64,000 bases of DNA from the NCBI GenBank assembly GCA_963722075.1, contig CAVRJM010000001.1:512001-576000 (forward strand), given 5' to 3'. A model generated the notes under the pieces. The model was given only the letters and a program-made list of their open reading frames with translations, did not search any database and was not told the DNA's origin. Both the position numbers and the translations under genes were made by a program. The first letter of the stretch is position 1. Each line of letters starts with the position of its first letter. Shown here in pieces: positions 13,630 to 24,476 of this stretch. This stretch comes from Candidatus Babeliales bacterium. Its GTDB lineage: Bacteria; Babelota; Babeliae; Babelales; JANWKD01.

Positions 13630-13705
13630 CGGGGCGTGGCGCAATTGGTAGCGCACTCGCTTTGGGAGCGAGGGGTTGCCAGTTCGAGTCTGGCCGCCCC
13701 GACCA
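13630..13705 (+). tRNA. tRNA-Pro (TGG)
   Basis: CGGGGCG/CGCCCCG acceptor stem, CTCGC-TTTGGGA-GCGAG anticodon arm, encoded CCA. Confidence 0.97.
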
Positions 13706-13740
13706 GTTTTTTCCTACACCCAATTTCTAGGAAAAGCATA

Positions 13741-14490
13741 ATGAATTCCATTAATACAAAGCTTCTACTCTCATTAATAATTTCACTGTATTTCTCCCCT
13801 TTAATTTCAGTTCATTTTGTTAACGATTATATTAAAAACCCATTTGCAGCTCTTAATTCTTCCTATTTATCACAAAATACGCTTACTGCTTCTAAATCAT
13901 ATGCTATAGGTGCTACAGCACTAGTTGGAGTACTTGGTGCCGTATATGCGCTACATCGAACAATAACATATCTGAACGATTGTTGTTTCAATAAGAAATC
14001 AGATCAATATATTATTAAATATGCTCATGCTATACATTATAAATTTTCGCGCCAATTTAGCGTTTTATTAAATCATATTGATGCATATGATCTTACCAAT
14101 CCTCATACAACGCAACAAAAGATCATATTTAAAAATGCGCTGTTGCAGCGATCTACTGCTCTTTTTCCTTTCTTAGAGGCTGTAAACGAAATTAAAACAG
14201 CCCTTATTGTTATTACTCAAACAATTTCTATATTAGAACGAAGAATCACTAGCGTAAAAAGCACCGTTACTGATGCAACTCTTAAGAATGGTACTCATGC
14301 TGATTGTATCGTTATTTTGACCGCCCTCAAAACGTCATTACAAAAATTAAATACTAAATTAGAACGTTTAAAAAATGAAATAACCAGTTGTTATGAATAT
14401 AAAATGGAATTAAGAGAAAATAATACCCGCAATCAACTTTTTCTCAATGCCATTTTGGCATCTGCTGCAATAGGGGCATTAGTATGGTAG
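13741..14490 (+). CDS. Hypothetical exported helical protein (related to 16856 and 17533)
   Basis: Start moved to ATG 13741 because the ORF-track start lies inside tRNA-Pro. Shares PF...LERRI...KNE(I/V)xxxYEY with two downstream ORFs. Confidence 0.75.
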   Translation: MNSINTKLLLSLIISLYFSPLISVHFVNDYIKNPFAALNSSYLSQNTLTASKSYAIGATALVGVLGAVYALHRTITYLNDCCFNKKSDQYIIKYAHAIHYKFSRQFSVLLNHIDAYDLTNPHTTQQKIIFKNALLQRSTALFPFLEAVNEIKTALIVITQTISILERRITSVKSTVTDATLKNGTHADCIVILTALKTSLQKLNTKLERLKNEITSCYEYKMELRENNTRNQLFLNAILASAAIGALVW

Positions 14491-16855: not shown

Positions 16856-17506
16856 ATGTATAAACAATTATTTGCCATTCTTATTTCATTATCTTTGTGC
16901 TTTTCTTCAGATGCAAAATTTACCCTATTTAGGGAACAACCAAAAGTTGAGATTGAAAAAATCATAAAGCAGGATTATAACCCGTTGGTATTCCTTGGAA
17001 TCGAGTTCGGGTGTGTAGCAATAGCTGTTACCGGGTATTATGCATATAAATGCTACAAACAATATCAGCTTGATTGTAAACCGGCACGCGACCTCGTTCA
17101 AGAATCAAGAGATACTTTAAAGCGAATTAGACAAATCCATAATGCATTTTTAGAACAACCTAATAGCTCCTTAGGCATAGATATTCAACACAAAATGATT
17201 TCATCTGATAATTTTAAAAAGATCGTTATTGAAGAATATAACGGCTATTCTTATCCTTTTGTCAATTGCAAAAAATCTTTAGAAAAATCAATCAACGAAT
17301 GCCAAACCATTTTAGAACAATTAGAAAGAAGAATTATAAGAATTAAAGATTGCATAAGTGATCATGATGAATATATCCCTAAACTGGAAGCTTTAGAACT
17401 AAAATACGATAGATTGGTTAATATTTTAACAATCATAAAAAATGAAGTGGAACATAGTTATGAATATCAAATTGAACAAAATATTTTAAATATTCCACGT
17501 CGATAA
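16856..17506 (+). CDS. Hypothetical exported protein, tandem paralog 1
   Basis: Clear similarity to 17533-18231 (KPAR.L..ESRD.LKRI.QIHNA, SINEC.TILE.LERRI). Confidence 0.8.
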   Translation: MYKQLFAILISLSLCFSSDAKFTLFREQPKVEIEKIIKQDYNPLVFLGIEFGCVAIAVTGYYAYKCYKQYQLDCKPARDLVQESRDTLKRIRQIHNAFLEQPNSSLGIDIQHKMISSDNFKKIVIEEYNGYSYPFVNCKKSLEKSINECQTILEQLERRIIRIKDCISDHDEYIPKLEALELKYDRLVNILTIIKNEVEHSYEYQIEQNILNIPRR

Positions 17507-17532: not shown

Positions 17533-18231
17533 ATGTATAAACAAATATTTACTCTTATTATTTCACTTTCTTTAATATCCTCTTCCAGCGCAGAATTTAC
17601 TTTATTTAAAAAAACCCAGGTATATGATAAGCCATCTCCTCTTGATAATTGTTGCTTAAAGCCGTTAGCTTTCACCATTGCCGGTGTTGCAACCATCGGC
17701 CTAGTAAGCGCGGGTTATCAGTTTATTAAATGTTATTATTTAGATAAAAAGCCGGCACGGGAACTTATTAATGAATCGCGCGATGCATTAAAGCGTATTA
17801 AACAAATACATAATGCTTTATTATGCCAACCGGTGATTTCACAACTTCCTGAAGGTCAAGAAAGAATGGTTGCGGAGTTCAATTTCAAGAAAACAATTAC
17901 AAATACTTATGAGGAGCGGCATCCATTCATTACATGCAAGAACGACTTAAGAGATTCGATCAATGAATGCATAACGATTTTAGAAAAATTAGAACGTCGC
18001 ATTGATAGAATAAAGGATGGCAAAAATGATCATAAGGGATATTTACCTAAATTAGAAAGATTAAAAGTAGAATGTTATTCATTAATAGATTCCTTAACTG
18101 CAATAAAGAATGAAGTAGTTAATTGTTATGAATATACCAATGAATGTAATATGTCCCGTACATCCGGTGTAGCGACACAAGCACTCATTTATTCACATGT
18201 TATTCCAATACTACTTACATGTCCTATATAA
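17533..18231 (+). CDS. Hypothetical exported protein, tandem paralog 2
   Basis: Same family as 16856; same GGGACATTATGTATAAACAA start context. Confidence 0.8.
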   Translation: MYKQIFTLIISLSLISSSSAEFTLFKKTQVYDKPSPLDNCCLKPLAFTIAGVATIGLVSAGYQFIKCYYLDKKPARELINESRDALKRIKQIHNALLCQPVISQLPEGQERMVAEFNFKKTITNTYEERHPFITCKNDLRDSINECITILEKLERRIDRIKDGKNDHKGYLPKLERLKVECYSLIDSLTAIKNEVVNCYEYTNECNMSRTSGVATQALIYSHVIPILLTCPI

Positions 18232-18637: not shown

Positions 18638-21600
18638 ATGAATCATATCAAACAAAACCTAATACGCTTTTTTTTCATTATTCTTTTTACTCCTATAAAT
18701 ACCGCTGCTATGCAAATTGCAGCCGAATTGCTTAATTATTTTGCAGCCACACCAACTCTTATTGCATTACCTGCATGGTATACATTCAATCAAAATGATT
18801 ACGGAAGCTATAATGTTACTATTGATGTTCCTAGTCGCACCTTTCACGCACCTCAAACCACACCCCAACTAGCACCTACAACACCACAAACACCGTATTT
18901 TACAAGAGACATGCACCGCATGTTTTCCTCACAAATGCAAAATACTGACCCGCTTACCTTTAGTTCCTTGCATGATTCAGGACGTTATTTTTCCTTTACC
19001 ATACAACCAATGTCTTATAGGCCATGTGTAGAGCCTTCATCGATAACAAAACAACAACGAATTGAGCAGCATCTCATTACAGAAGATATTATGCAAGGAT
19101 TACAAAACCCTCAGCTTCCCGAGCGTGGGCCAGTTTCTTTAGGCGTTTCCGATTCGCTGTATGCTCAATATCAGTTTCAACGAAATCAAATTGTCAACAA
19201 TTGTATCCAGGCATTACGCAAATCCCCTACTGCATGTCTTAATTTGGTTCATTCACGTTATATTTTGAATGATGCATCTTATTCTCGGCAATTGAACGAG
19301 ATTCTGGAAACAACCATCTCAAAGTTTTGTGATGCCTTTTATGATAAGCAAGGTGCCGCAACCTTACCTGATAAAAAAGAATACTATCCATTAACAGAAG
19401 TGTTATGCACGTACATGAGGCAGTACCTTACTGATGAACAACTTATCGAATATATTCATCGTGAATGTGCCGATTTAGCATATTTTAAGCAGTTTGAACG
19501 CTACATAACAGGACGCCTAGAACCTATTGCTTTCAATTTCAAATTGATTGCAGCTGCTTTTAAAGAATTGGTGCAATCAAGTGATTATTTTGAAAAACGA
19601 AAAAAACTAATTCTTGAAAATTCCTTTAATCAAAACTTACAACGTATTCAAAAGTTATGTCAAAATGAACAATTTGCTCAAGCACATGCTTTTATCGAGC
19701 ATTTAAAAAAAGATAACCCTTTAAAACAACAATTTTTAAATGCATTTGCACAAGAATTAATAGCCAATTCAACCCCATTACAAGCACTCAAATCAATCGA
19801 TCCTCGATTACTTACTTCGCCGCTTATTTATTTTATGCGCCATGGTATGATGGAGCGCTTATCCAAAGACCGGGATCAATATAGTACCGCTCAATTACTC
19901 TTTAGGACGTTATATACCCAACCACAAAATTATTGGTATAAAAAAGCTGATATGGAAATTTATCCATGTGATCAGCTTGAACACGAATGTATGGTAGCAT
20001 ACAAAGCATTATGTAATGAATATGGGTTGCCTTTGTGCTTTTCTTATAATCAACAAGCCTTATCACAGGGTTTTGCTGCAAAAGAACAAATCATTTCTTT
20101 GCAACATTTACGCGAACGATCTTTTCTTTTTAAGTTCGCTACCTTAAAATGCCCACCACATCTAAATGACCTTGATTTTCAACAAGCAATAATTACCGGA
20201 TTATCATATCTACAAGCAGCGGTGAAAAATCCAGATCGGTCCTATAATTATACCGTTCTTGCCGCTGCAATATATTATGCATTAACCCATAAACATACTT
20301 CGCAAGCGATTCTAAATTGTAATTCTTTTCTATTACCGGAACAATCCGATCTGTTTTCACTACACGAATTTTTACTTGAGCAAGCTATTATGTTCATCCG
20401 GATCAATAATGATCGCAATCCTGATCAACCTTCTTTATTTTCTTCGCATCAAGCAACTATTGATAATGCCCTTTATGCCGAAAGTCAACTCTGGCAAAAT
20501 GCATTACTTGAAGATGAGTATCCACAACGACAAGCGTGCGACGATATTTGTTCTATTGCAGAACATCTATATTTTGATGAACTATCATACATAGTTCCCC
20601 ATTCAAAATCATCAATACCGATTAATTCATCTCAAAGATCAATAGAATTAGTAAATGCGGATGATAGTCTCACTACACTCATTACATTGCATATAGGGCC
20701 TATAAGCAATTTTGAATTTAATCAGTATGAACAAGCTGCTATTCACCGGCAAGACAAAGAATTAATACCGAGCCTTAATACCATCAAAGCAATTAACCTT
20801 TATAATACACTTAATTCTACTATCGAGCTCTTTCAAGATGCATTACTTCTATGGTATGGAGCACCGCTCTTAAATGAGCGAGAAGCAGCTGCGATAGCAA
20901 TACAGTGTGGAGAAATTGCTGCTTTATATATCCCGGAAAATAAAACAAATCATTTTGCAGAACTATTTACTAGCATCGGACAACACATTCTCAATTTTGC
21001 TCAAGTAGCTCCGCAGCTTATGGTCAGCAAATACGTAACGCTTCCAGTATATTGGGCTCTGGCTCACCAAAAAATAAGTGGTGGAGAGCTTTTTGATACC
21101 GCGCTTAAAAATGCAATCAGTGCCTTTATTCCACTGCGCAGAGCAATACAATTATTAGATTACAATTTAGGGAATGATGACAATTTCATTCAATTGCCCA
21201 ACTCATTACTGGATATAAAGGAAATTTGCTCTTTCTTAGAACAACAAAAACCATTGCCCGGATGCGCTGCGCAAGTAACGGCTAATTTACGATTACTTGG
21301 TTGCATGGCCGGTATTAATGACAAACCAACCCTCGAATCGTTCAATCATTGTCTGCACCATTATCTTGCTCAGTTTTTTATAAATAATCCTGATAAAGCC
21401 GCTGAGGAGCACTTTGCTTCCTGCATTCTTTCTAATAAACTATTTAGTATTGCCGCCGGTGCTTTCAAATTAATGCAGGAGTTTGAGACGGAACTGAGTG
21501 GATGGGAACGGTATCTACCCTTCTTTAAAGATGGCGCTATAGTGCTTAATTACGCACAAGAATTATTACTTGATACGCAAAATCAGCTTGCTCATTTTGT

Positions 21601-22042
21601 CCATTTTACGCTGATTCCTGCTATTGGTTGGGCGAATGATATAGTAATTCAACCAGGAGAACGCGTTCCATGGATGTTTGCGCCATTTGATTTTAAGAAA
21701 AACAATAATATTAAAAAACCAAAAAAAGATAAGGGGAAAGAAAAGGAGGAAACTCCGCAGCAGAAAAGGGAACGTGAAAAGAACGAACGCAAACAAAAAA
21801 GAGAAAATTGGAAGGAAACTCTTAAGAAAAACGTGCAAAAAGAACTTGAAAAACACGGCTATAGGTATCGCAAAGATCCCCCCTTTGATACGCATGGACA
21901 ACCAGCATATCAACATATTAAAACCGGGGAATGGATTACTCTTGATGTTGATGGCCATAATGGAGGTGTTTGGAAGAAGTTCGATAGAAGAGGCAAAAAT
22001 AGAAAAACTTTGGATAAAGATTTTAATCCCATAGGCGATTAA
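18638..22042 (+). CDS. Polymorphic toxin: uncharacterised N-terminal carrier + C-terminal Ntox21/CdiA-CT(ECL)-like RNase
   Basis: The C-terminus THGQPAY...WITLDVDGHNGGVWKKFD...TLDKDFNPIGD carries the HGQ, DxDxH-xGGxWK and TxDxxxxxIGD pattern of Ntox21. A CdiI(ECL)-like gene starts 6 nt after the stop. Confidence 0.85.
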   Translation: MNHIKQNLIRFFFIILFTPINTAAMQIAAELLNYFAATPTLIALPAWYTFNQNDYGSYNVTIDVPSRTFHAPQTTPQLAPTTPQTPYFTRDMHRMFSSQMQNTDPLTFSSLHDSGRYFSFTIQPMSYRPCVEPSSITKQQRIEQHLITEDIMQGLQNPQLPERGPVSLGVSDSLYAQYQFQRNQIVNNCIQALRKSPTACLNLVHSRYILNDASYSRQLNEILETTISKFCDAFYDKQGAATLPDKKEYYPLTEVLCTYMRQYLTDEQLIEYIHRECADLAYFKQFERYITGRLEPIAFNFKLIAAAFKELVQSSDYFEKRKKLILENSFNQNLQRIQKLCQNEQFAQAHAFIEHLKKDNPLKQQFLNAFAQELIANSTPLQALKSIDPRLLTSPLIYFMRHGMMERLSKDRDQYSTAQLLFRTLYTQPQNYWYKKADMEIYPCDQLEHECMVAYKALCNEYGLPLCFSYNQQALSQGFAAKEQIISLQHLRERSFLFKFATLKCPPHLNDLDFQQAIITGLSYLQAAVKNPDRSYNYTVLAAAIYYALTHKHTSQAILNCNSFLLPEQSDLFSLHEFLLEQAIMFIRINNDRNPDQPSLFSSHQATIDNALYAESQLWQNALLEDEYPQRQACDDICSIAEHLYFDELSYIVPHSKSSIPINSSQRSIELVNADDSLTTLITLHIGPISNFEFNQYEQAAIHRQDKELIPSLNTIKAINLYNTLNSTIELFQDALLLWYGAPLLNEREAAAIAIQCGEIAALYIPENKTNHFAELFTSIGQHILNFAQVAPQLMVSKYVTLPVYWALAHQKISGGELFDTALKNAISAFIPLRRAIQLLDYNLGNDDNFIQLPNSLLDIKEICSFLEQQKPLPGCAAQVTANLRLLGCMAGINDKPTLESFNHCLHHYLAQFFINNPDKAAEEHFASCILSNKLFSIAAGAFKLMQEFETELSGWERYLPFFKDGAIVLNYAQELLLDTQNQLAHFVHFTLIPAIGWANDIVIQPGERVPWMFAPFDFKKNNNIKKPKKDKGKEKEETPQQKREREKNERKQKRENWKETLKKNVQKELEKHGYRYRKDPPFDTHGQPAYQHIKTGEWITLDVDGHNGGVWKKFDRRGKNRKTLDKDFNPIGD

Positions 22043-22048
22043 TTAATT

Positions 22049-22540
22049 ATGAAACAATTTAAAATTAACATACTTACTGATCGACCAGAAATTATCAGAG
22101 ATGAACGCTCTCATATTGGTGAAATAGTTATCGGTAATTTTGAAGAGATATTTCAAATACCATTGTGCTTCTGGCGATTAATAGATTATAAAAAACAATG
22201 GAAAAGTGCCCTTGAGCATATTAAAACCCATGATTCAAGCTGTTTTATCGTTTCTATACATGCTACTGCTAAGAATTTGATCAATGACCCAGACGATTTG
22301 GATTTACAATTATTTATATTATATAAAGTTGGTAATAAAATATTTATTCAAAATCGTTTTTTTGGCTGGCTTCGATTAAGAGAAACCAGGAAAATCAAAA
22401 AATTACCTCCCTTCGATGCAAAATCATGTTACTCATATCTTCCTCCTCGAGAAACAGTTACCCCAGAAGGCGAAAAGATTTCTGAATGGAGTATCAGTGT
22501 CAGTGATTTAAAGCATGCGCAAGTAGGAGGCAAGTATTAA
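22049..22540 (+). CDS. Immunity protein, CdiI(ECL)-like; probable cognate immunity
   Basis: IVIGNFEE.FQIPL.FW...DYKKQW, LYKVGNKIFIQN and RET.T.EGEKISEW recall Enterobacter cloacae CdiI (recognised from memory). Confidence 0.85.
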   Translation: MKQFKINILTDRPEIIRDERSHIGEIVIGNFEEIFQIPLCFWRLIDYKKQWKSALEHIKTHDSSCFIVSIHATAKNLINDPDDLDLQLFILYKVGNKIFIQNRFFGWLRLRETRKIKKLPPFDAKSCYSYLPPRETVTPEGEKISEWSISVSDLKHAQVGGKY

Positions 22541-22744
22541 AAATTCCTATTTTCTAATTTAACTGTACAAAAATAATTTTTACTATACACTTTAAAATAA
22601 TAATTTATAATTTATTTTTCTGCAGGAGACCTTATCATGACTCCAAACATTTCTTCTAACTAACATCCCTAAAAATACAACCTTATCTTTCAACTTTTCT
22701 TTTTATAAAGAAAAATAATAATTGGATTATTCTGCAGAATATTT

Positions 22745-23314
22745 ATGAAAACTTTCAAAATTGAATTGGTTACCAAAAAACCAAAAAAAATTAATGGTAC
22801 ATGGTCTCATTTTGGTAAGATTACTATCGGAACCTTCGTGGAACGCTTTCAAATTCCTTTAGATTATTGGTCCATAGAAGAATATATAAAGCAATGGGAA
22901 GAAGGCCTTAATAGAATTAAAGCACATGATTCATCATGCTTCGTTTCCAAAGTATGGAGCCCTGAGTCTGACCCATATGTTTTTATGTATGTCGCCTATA
23001 AAGTAAAAAAACGTATTTTTTTTCAGGAACATGCAACTCTTCATATGGATGTTTATGAAGAGAACCTTCCGCCTTTCGATGCTCAAACCTGCTATTTATA
23101 TGTGAGAGAAAGAACCCCAGGTCGCAACAAAAAAGAAGATGAATTATTCTTAGGTCGTAATATTAATGATCTTACGGAAGAAGAAGCGACACAAATAAAG
23201 CCTTCTGAATGGAACATTATGCTTAGAAATCTTGATCATGCTCGAGTAGGTAAATTTGGTGATTGTTGTCCTCCAAATGAAGAGTGTTACCTTAAACTGA
23301 AAAAATGGCTATAA
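22745..23314 (+). CDS. Orphan immunity protein, CdiI(ECL)-like paralog 2
   Basis: FQIPLDYW..EYIKQW, HDSSCFV, LPPFD, SEW. Has an acidic insertion and a Cys-containing C-terminal extension. Confidence 0.83.
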   Translation: MKTFKIELVTKKPKKINGTWSHFGKITIGTFVERFQIPLDYWSIEEYIKQWEEGLNRIKAHDSSCFVSKVWSPESDPYVFMYVAYKVKKRIFFQEHATLHMDVYEENLPPFDAQTCYLYVRERTPGRNKKEDELFLGRNINDLTEEEATQIKPSEWNIMLRNLDHARVGKFGDCCPPNEECYLKLKKWL

Positions 23315-23359
23315 ATTCCTTAAAATTAAACGAAAATAATTAATCAAAATAATTAATCA

Positions 23360-23821
23360 ATGAAACGATTTGAAATTAATATACTTTCTGATGAACCGGA
23401 GATTATTAATGGTGAGCAGTCTCACAGGGGAGAATTATTTATTGGGAATTTTGTAGAAGAATTTCAAATTCCTCTCACTGTCTGGCGACTTAAAGATTAT
23501 AAAAAACAATGGCACGAAGCACTTGAGCGCATCAAAACTCATGATTCCAGTTGCTTTGTTACTTTTATCCGTAGAGAGGCCGCCCCTTTAGATTTACTAA
23601 AAGATCCCAATGATTTAGAAGTGCTCCTCTGGGCTTTATATAAAGTTGATACTAAAATTATTATACAAAAACATTATTTTGATAGCCACTTGTTACAAAG
23701 AACACGATCAACCTACAACCTTCCTCCCTTTAGCGCAGAAACTTGTTATTCATATCTTGATCAACGTGAAACGATCAAAAATGCCAATAAACTTGCGGCT
23801 GGAAAGAAGGTTGCTGAATGA
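23360..23821 (+). CDS. Orphan immunity paralog 3, truncated by TGA at the conserved (S/A)EW tryptophan
   Basis: Ends KKVAE-TGA. The frame continues GISVKDLKHTQVG, matching SISVSDLKHAQVG of paralog 1. Confidence 0.8.
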   Translation: MKRFEINILSDEPEIINGEQSHRGELFIGNFVEEFQIPLTVWRLKDYKKQWHEALERIKTHDSSCFVTFIRREAAPLDLLKDPNDLEVLLWALYKVDTKIIIQKHYFDSHLLQRTRSTYNLPPFSAETCYSYLDQRETIKNANKLAAGKKVAE

Positions 23822-23860
23822 GGTATTTCTGTTAAGGATCTAAAACATACTCAAGTAGGA

Positions 23861-24019
23861 GAACTAACTGTGGGACGAGTGGCATATGAAAATCCTACCA
23901 CTCACAACCGAATCACTCTCGAAATTTGTGGCAATGATGGCCAATGGAAACTCTATGAAGGCAAAACTGGTGAACGATTAGCAACCTTAGATGAAGATGG
24001 GAATCAAATTGGCAGATAA
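23861..24019 (+). pseudogene. Orphan Ntox21-like toxin tip fragment
   Basis: Manual translation ELTVGRVAYENPTTHNRITLEICGNDGQWKLYEGKTGERLATLDEDGNQIGR* aligns with the last ~50 aa of the toxin. Not in the ORF track. Confidence 0.8.
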
Positions 24020-24023
24020 AATT

Positions 24024-24476
24024 TTGAAAACACTTGAAATAATGGTTCTTACCGATACACCCGAAAAATATGAAGGAGTTCCCTTCCATGTTGTTCTCCT
24101 CACCCTTGGTGATTATGAAGAATATATTGATATCCCCTTAAACTATTGGGACATTAAAGCGTATAAAAAACAATGGCACGAAGGTATTGAACGGTTAAAA
24201 ACATTTAATACATCATGCTTAGTAACTGCAGTGTGGCGGCGAGATCCCGATCCACTTATTTTTATATGGGAATTGTATAAAGAACAAAATACCATTTTTG
24301 TACACAATGCTATGATTACGTGGGAATTTAAAAAATACAGACCAGCTTTACCTCCTTTTGACAGCAACACCTGCTATGCCTATATTAATCCGCGCAAAAC
24401 GGTTACTGAAAATGGCGAAAAAATTTCTGAATGGAGCATTGAATTAGATGCCCTTAAACATGCTCGAGTACGGTAA
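24024..24476 (+). CDS. Immunity paralog 4, partner of the orphan tip
   Basis: IPLNYWDIKAYKKQW, LPPFD, RKTVTENGEKISEW. TTG at 24024 aligns with the paralog starts and lies 4 nt after the orphan tip stop (the ORF track starts at 23991). Confidence 0.83.
   Translation: MKTLEIMVLTDTPEKYEGVPFHVVLLTLGDYEEYIDIPLNYWDIKAYKKQWHEGIERLKTFNTSCLVTAVWRRDPDPLIFIWELYKEQNTIFVHNAMITWEFKKYRPALPPFDSNTCYAYINPRKTVTENGEKISEWSIELDALKHARVR

Follow-up and report, generated by a model that had tools for sequence, protein, structure and literature searches.

Positions 18,638 to 24,476 of a 64,000-nucleotide window from a Candidatus Babeliales genome (assembly GCA_963722075.1, contig CAVRJM010000001.1), the window being the whole stretch of DNA analysed, encode what is, by its sequence, a polymorphic toxin locus: a 1134-amino-acid (aa) protein that joins a putative signal peptide to an unnamed, predicted helical carrier and ends in an Ntox21 tip, with four CdiI-type genes downstream of it. 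We place at about 0.7 the probability that it works as a polymorphic toxin system, in which a secreted toxin acts against neighbouring bacteria and the four CdiI-type genes protect. Polymorphic toxin systems are recognized by an N-terminal region that is conserved while the C-terminal toxin domains vary, a cognate immunity gene directly downstream and orphan tip/immunity cassettes, and all of these were found, the second as a CdiI_N gene 6 nucleotides (nt) after the tip and the third as a remnant before gene 4, a cassette on contig C3 and locus L043. Here G000 denotes the genome analysed, C1 and C3 its contigs, and L-numbers the loci fetched from genomes of the phylum.

Toxin tip and immunity array

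An earlier reading of this DNA, made from the letters alone (the sequence-only reading), had listed five open reading frames (ORFs), and all are present: 18638-22042 (1134 aa), 22049-22540, 22745-23314, 23360-23821 and 23991-24476. Its suggestion of an Ntox21-like tip is borne out, the last 57 residues (aa 1078-1134) reaching 33 bits against the Pfam Ntox21 profile, whose cut-off is 25, and retaining the active-site residues. The motif DVDGHNGGVWK to which it pointed starts at aa 1103, and D1103, D1105, H1107 and K1113 align with D203, D205, H207 and K214 of CdiA-CT(ECL) in the alignment with 4NTQ. These four residues together form the active site in CdiA-CT(ECL), a 16S rRNase whose cut falls between A1493 and G1494 (PMC9086364; here and below, a PMC accession stands for passages of that source), while Ntox21 is listed as a tRNase in an older table (PMC3482391). 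The chains of 4NTQ, the Enterobacter cloacae CdiA-CT/CdiI complex, are the best and only meaningful relatives in the PDB, with expectation values (E) of 9.6e-6 and 6.9e-19. From this alignment the tip is predicted to cleave 16S rRNA between A1493 and G1494. The linker described earlier as rich in lysine, arginine and glutamate (aa 1025-1075) contains 20 lysine or arginine and 11 aspartate or glutamate among its 51 residues. Prediction of the tip-immunity complex gave a score of 0.00 with the controls not folded, which speaks neither for nor against a complex.

The four small genes, described earlier as mutually similar and of CdiI type, are 40-58% identical in pairs and all match CdiI_N above the cut-off of 25 bits (67, 55, 38 and 82 bits); NCBIfam returned 0 families for any of the five locus proteins. 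The proposal of a four-gene poly-immunity array stands as to the four CdiI_N genes but not as to a pure array, since a decayed orphan tip sits between genes 3 and 4. Gene 3 terminates at a TGA where genes 1, 2 and 4 have tryptophan (repeat family D3), about 13 codons short of the usual family end, and past this codon the same frame finishes the CdiI fold and continues into a tip remnant of about 50 codons. The remnant shares 42% identity with the final 50 residues of the main tip, has lost the catalytic motif and gives no Pfam Ntox21 match. Recoding of TGA in G000 was considered and excluded, TGA ending 115 of 649 long genes. The alignment of gene 4 with its paralogues begins at TTG 24024, 4 nt after the stop of the remnant (the corresponding junction of toxin and gene 1 is 6 nt), and TTG 24024 is more likely the start of gene 4 than 23991. 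Because a remnant tip follows gene 3 and gene 4 starts right behind the stop of that remnant, the array is, as read from its sequence, a worn series of tip-immunity cassettes. In a relative (L143) the same layout of CdiI plus tip fragment lies within a single open frame. Positions 23864-24082 are matched without difference by one contig of another sequencing run, the contig pieces listed from other runs spanning neither the TGA of gene 3 nor the toxin tip. The features of the locus are collected in Table 1.

Table 1. Features of the toxin locus (positions in the window) and the evidence for each
Feature	Position	Strand	Basis
Polymorphic toxin gene, full-length, 1134 aa	18638..22042	+	C-terminal Ntox21
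Predicted Sec signal peptide, aa 1-24, then A-M-Q	18638..18709	+	Crude hydrophobicity rule and lineage motif
Core of the carrier, conserved and unnamed, aa 223-622; all-helical by prediction	19304..20503	+	Profiles, model
Middle region, aa 623-1020, predicted helical at low confidence	20504..21697	+	Region comparison, model
Charged linker/helix preceding the tip, aa 1025-1075	21710..21862	+	Composition, model
Ntox21 / CdiA-CT(ECL)-type tip, aa 1078-1134	21869..22042	+	Pfam, PDB alignment
Immunity gene 1 (CdiI_N), 6 nt after toxin; likely cognate	22049..22540	+	Pfam, PDB
Immunity gene 2 (CdiI_N); no tip remnant detected ahead	22745..23314	+	Pfam
Immunity gene 3 (CdiI_N); early TGA	23360..23821	+	Pfam, paralogue alignment
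Decayed orphan tip, Ntox21-like last ~50 aa, in frame after gene 3	23867..24019	+	Alignment
Immunity gene 4 (CdiI_N), 150 aa counted from TTG; likely once paired with the remnant	24024..24476	+	Pfam, paralogue alignment

Carrier and tip exchange across Babelota

The carrier had been described as lacking recognizable features and as possibly undescribed, and this was borne out: no FHA, Rhs, LXG, PAAR, MafB or Hint family matched at E<=1 in Pfam, and Pfam, NCBIfam and PDB-sequence searches gave no match to a catalogued family. With 18 cores, no Pfam family scored above the cut-off and none was matched by more than one core; NCBIfam returned 0 families for the core, and the best PDB sequence match had an E of 0.069. 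The AlphaFold model of the core is all-helical, with a predicted local distance difference test (pLDDT) of 81 and a predicted template modelling score (pTM) of 0.65. Foldseek with the core gave generic helical matches only (best E 1.4), and the best match of a VIA fold search, a designed helical repeat (Z 11.8, root-mean-square deviation 8.4), lies below the mark that the tool sets for helical proteins. The model of aa 623-1134 is of low confidence (pLDDT 52) and helical up to the tip. From its position in the protein, the carrier may serve in display, receptor binding or entry.

A first profile of four rows matched in 17 of the 261 Babelota genomes that made up the phylum set. Seventeen of the 18 loci fetched from it are long ORFs whose starts resemble leaders and whose C-termini are unrelated; the remaining one, L050 (E 4e-4), was rejected as a false match. 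The common core comprises about 400 aa (aa 223-622 here), and six proteins that had no part in the first alignment of the core matched it with E of 3e-24 to 6e-9. An 18-row core profile drawn from 14 genomes matched in 52 of the 261 genomes (these 14 being the profile sources), a count in which the weakest matches may be false, given L050. From 40 further loci, 32 gave 33 carrier ORFs and 8 had no ORF-level match. Beyond the phylum, searches were single-sequence or word-limited, the core profile having been run on Babelota genomes, and occurrence elsewhere is possible; word-index protein searches returned the window protein itself only, or itself and one family member, phmmer against 1.84 billion representative proteins gave 3 matches (the window protein, its paralogue and one unnamed relative), the ESM Atlas gave no match for two cores, and plasmid and phage searches gave no carrier match. 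The carrier is apparently undescribed, and it is phylum-wide.

Tip and immunity classes were assigned to the 47 of 54 carrier ORFs that have a complete tip and a close small downstream gene, which gave 16 tip classes and 25 downstream-gene classes. All 42 pairs of loci with a common downstream class also have the same tip class (same-tip pairs total 85), and 2000 shuffles gave a mean of 3.4 and a maximum of 11 concordant pairs. Immunity class tracks tip class. Pfam names some of these domains: EndoU is above the cut-off in 5 loci and Ntox35 in 2, most tips being unmatched, and among the downstream genes CdiI_ImmP lies behind 4 tips and DUF2247 behind 2. In a quick tree of 40 cores, the window carrier groups with L001 and L007 (Shimodaira-Hasegawa-like approximate likelihood ratio test 99), both of which bear another tip; L091 and its tandem copy have zero core distance and unrelated tips, and the sister carriers L080 and L081 have unlike tips. 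The second tandem carrier at L091 (genome G229) is frameshifted near its start.

Carrier homologues with different tips, which the sequence-only reading had called for, thus occur both across the phylum and within G000 itself, where three further copies carry two other tip types with small genes behind. The copy at C3:674-4255 bears a different tip; an immunity-like gene and an orphan tip-immunity cassette accompany it, and its pre-tip region is repeated; over C3:674-6368 (L001), its unnamed tip shows a conserved E...D...WDVK, and the two pre-tip-region repeats are both broken. The copy at C1:162188-164449 has the same tip class as the C3 copy and is missing most of the core. At C1:161938-164793 (L002:5939-8794), the leader is a separate ORF of 108 aa, which overlaps one of 753 aa that keeps the tip and immunity gene. 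This shared tip class has a weak CdiA_C_tRNase match below the cut-off (E 0.017); its WD40 matches in the PDB were judged spurious. The third copy, C1:3-2708 with an open start, bears an Ntox35 tip, and at C1:3-4082 (L094) the carrier, truncated by the contig start, is followed by two similar genes of about 200-240 aa. In a related strain (run X1), 19 of 317 bases differ just before the linker (21454-21577), other carrier pieces being near-identical; the comparison covers no part of the tip.

With gene 3 shortened, the orphan tip decayed and the C1:162188 paralogue missing most of its core, the locus might be read as a defence island, which persists because of its immunity genes, its toxin having ceased to be delivered; the main ORF, however, is unbroken over 1134 codons, and the signal, the core and the four catalytic residues are all in place, and we regard this explanation as improbable beside a delivered toxin.

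The middle region (aa 623-1020) is common, among 41 such regions, only to two G000 copies of the same subfamily and one copy from the same genus. A second module, unnamed and with a G-N-x-L-Q-H motif, is present in 15 of the 41, on core-bearing and Hint-bearing carriers alike, and is absent from the window protein; it was seen at L035, L045, L075, L080, L081, L084, L098, L105, L109, L110, L112, L140, L141 and L145.

Ntox21 was found in 32 and CdiI_N in 30 of the 261 phylum genomes (0 of 14 controls), with Ntox21 tips on signal-plus-Hint proteins and other long carriers; PT-HINT is found on such carriers and not on the window protein. A second Babelota scaffold, running from signal peptide through a Hint-like domain to an Ntox21 tip in 320-900 aa, was seen at L138, L140, L143, L144 and L145. 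Arrays are frequent at the Ntox21 loci of the phylum, with up to eight CdiI genes or with alternating orphan tips, and this frequency of Ntox21 and CdiI_N, often as arrays, implies that variant attackers exist among kin. Long CdiI arrays lie at L137 (genome G258), L139 (G259), L136 (G058) and L039:1551-3067 (G001), across which orphan tips and immunity genes alternate, eight CdiI genes stand behind one toxin, and three CdiI genes occur in the same-genus genome, which yielded no Ntox21.

Export, target and competing explanations

G000 belongs to the Babelota (Dependentiae/TM6). It contains, within its small-subunit rRNA gene, an exact match to a phylum-specific 16S primer designed for Babelota (PMC12172432), and it has hallmark genes of the phylum: a 1.47 Mb genome of 35% G+C has three ORFs for TLC ADP/ATP translocases and two secretin genes that flank one for PilM, and TM6 has been described with such genome traits, ADP/ATP translocases and secretins (PMC4776705). 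The earlier guess at lineage, a probable intracellular parasite of protists, is in line with the primer site, secretins and translocases; an intracellular protist-parasite lifestyle is likely, judged from the phylum.

The prediction here of the Sec-type signal peptide noted earlier uses a lineage motif together with a crude rule on hydrophobicity, not SignalP. Under this rule, [AGSCP]M[EDQN] after the signal-like stretch occurs in 163 of 671 signal-like proteins and in 17 of 641 others in G000. The public gene call (P0001) begins at M25 and is without the signal peptide; in the 163 proteins of G000 with methionine plus E/D/Q/N after a signal-like stretch, gene callers can start at that methionine and drop the leader. 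Searches of the 99%-complete G000 for VipB, VirB4-type and FHIPEP proteins found none, with positive control searches, and no marker of a type VI (T6SS), type IV or type III secretion system was found. No CdiB lies beside the locus, as the earlier claim of no nearby cdiB or other secretion gene had it; a POTRA_2 search of G000 gave as sole match a BamA-like, 5-POTRA Omp85 protein, and a ShlB profile search of G000 was blank, as was its control. Two T2SSF/PilC genes are present, and vesicles have been seen in Chromulinavorax (PMC6561590). Export is likely by Sec plus a secretin machine (type II or type IV pilus-like), or by vesicles, as for the other signal-bearing proteins of the lineage.

In the system that we favour, the toxin would be exported via Sec and then through a secretin machine or outer-membrane vesicles, would enter a neighbouring bacterium by way of its carrier and would cut 16S rRNA at the decoding centre, stopping translation and killing the cell. 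Gene 1 would shield the producer and its siblings, and genes 2-4, as spares, would shield against variant Ntox21 tips of rival strains, tips being exchanged through recombination in the pre-tip region. The rivals would be other Babelota in the same protist cell or vacuole.

The same protein could instead be directed at the host, secreted into the protist to cut mitochondrial or cytosolic small-subunit rRNA, with immunity guarding the producer only. No bacterial envelope would then have to be crossed, the N-terminal signature is common to 163 other G000 proteins, Chromulinavorax replicates wrapped in a host mitochondrion and has signal peptides on 44% of its proteins (PMC6561590), and in vitro, colicin E3 reportedly cleaves the 18S rRNA in ribosomes isolated from eukaryotes (PMC4639596). 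One cognate immunity gene would suffice for such an effector, however, whereas three divergent spares, orphan cassettes and tip swapping point to inter-bacterial conflict, and host-directed toxins of intracellular bacteria are mostly without immunity genes (PMC3482391). We consider a host effector unlikely; that the spare immunity genes diverge makes rival bacteria a likelier target than the ribosomes of host organelles.

The locus occupies a variable slot between rodA and ruvB, with unrelated genes there in 3/3 relatives examined. Such a position would suit an addiction module, in which toxin and immunity prevent loss of the locus from the genome or make the host depend on the bacterium, as has been proposed for polymorphic toxin loci of a Bodo endosymbiont (PMC8163844; see also PMC12999062). 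The immunity proteins start without a hydrophobic leader, however, and would therefore stay out of the host; addiction inside the cell calls for neither signal peptide nor 1000-aa carrier, and toxin-less spares are left unexplained. This is the least probable of the explanations that we weighed.

Several points weigh against a toxin delivered to neighbouring bacteria. The secretins lie far from the locus and may serve pili, and since the carriers have no conserved hydrophobic or membrane-spanning stretch after the N-terminal leader and no protease domain was found in them, entry and release are left without visible means. The PDB match of the tip spans just 55 residues. In the comparison of classes, 7 of 54 carrier ORFs were left out (L034 for want of a small gene, L046 and L051 as they lie at contig ends, L047 and L078 because of a split ahead of the tip, and the tipless L101 and L102), and tips partly follow the carrier tree, with 21 changes (minimum 14, shuffled 29.8), so that kinship inflates the count of concordant pairs. 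Nor was a report of Babelota strains co-infecting one host found in the literature passages.

We suggest, tentatively and with rather less confidence than the secreted toxin itself, a phylum-wide arms race of these wholly intracellular protist parasites within their hosts, in which the helical carrier would be confined to Babelota and would act as a new entry module, bringing interchangeable nucleases, many of them unnamed, out by Sec and a secretin and into rival bacteria of the same host cell, and the spare-immunity arrays would record past co-infections.

Relation to known systems and significance

Around the locus, a promoter/terminator scan gave signal below chance, and Rfam found two tRNAs only within 12-30 kb. 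Upstream lie three related, leader-bearing, coiled-coil-like ORFs (13636-14490, 16856-17506 and 17533-18231), the latter two 47% identical; the ORF call at 13636-14490 overlaps a tRNA at 13630-13702.

The domain tests indicate that this is not a contact-dependent inhibition (CDI), Rhs, LXG, MafB or Hint toxin. Like the CdiA-CT/CdiI system of E. cloacae (4NTQ; PF15526, PF18228), it has the tip family, the four active-site residues, the immunity family, adjacency and orphan modules. Unlike that system, it is 1134 aa long with a predicted helical carrier, has no haemagglutinin repeats, two-partner secretion (TPS) domain or pretoxin motif by Pfam or NCBIfam, and has no CdiB/TpsB beside it. No YD or PAAR domain was found in it and no VipB in the genome, as Rhs/T6SS effectors would have, and the window protein has no MafB, LXG or Hint match. 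Colicin E3/cloacin-type bacteriocins share the predicted 16S cleavage and the plan of a large receptor/translocation part, a small nuclease tip and an adjacent immunity gene; here, in contrast, there is no colicin domain match, a signal peptide stands in place of lysis release, the gene is chromosomal and many tips occur on one carrier.

The kind of system is already known: signal-peptide polymorphic toxins with lineage-specific N-termini include that of the amoeba symbiont Odyssella, a precedent inside amoebae (PMC3482391). The 'T2SS' class of Zhang et al. 2012 (MafB, Amoebophilus APD1/APD2, Odyssella; PMC3482391) resembles the present locus in its signal peptide, constant N-terminus, variable nuclease tips and immunity genes; here the carrier matches no Pfam/NCBIfam model, no lipobox was seen, and matches fell in Babelota only in the searches run. 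The loci of Ca. Bodocaedibacter vickermanii likewise belong to a protist endosymbiont and have unnamed N-termini and orphan modules (PMC8163844), but there a T6SS is present and the three loci are unrelated, whereas one carrier domain occurs phylum-wide here and G000 has no T6SS marker, a distinction drawn from the description of those loci, not from carrier sequence. No report of Babelota toxin-immunity systems was found in the open-access literature, subscription literature lying outside the search, and the word 'toxin' is absent from the main texts of PMC4776705, PMC6561590 and PMC12172432 on Babelota.

About one fifth of the genomes of an intracellular phylum have one toxin scaffold with matched immunity genes, a proportion suggestive of common co-infection and of conflict within protists. 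An unnamed 400-aa domain gains a testable job, in entry or display, and the Babelota loci yield a collection of unnamed pairs of tip and immunity gene, suited to assays in E. coli. According to earlier work (PMC3482391), intracellular bacteria for the most part have no immunity genes and do not compete with others like themselves; the present locus and its relatives suggest that intracellular Babelota fight one another.

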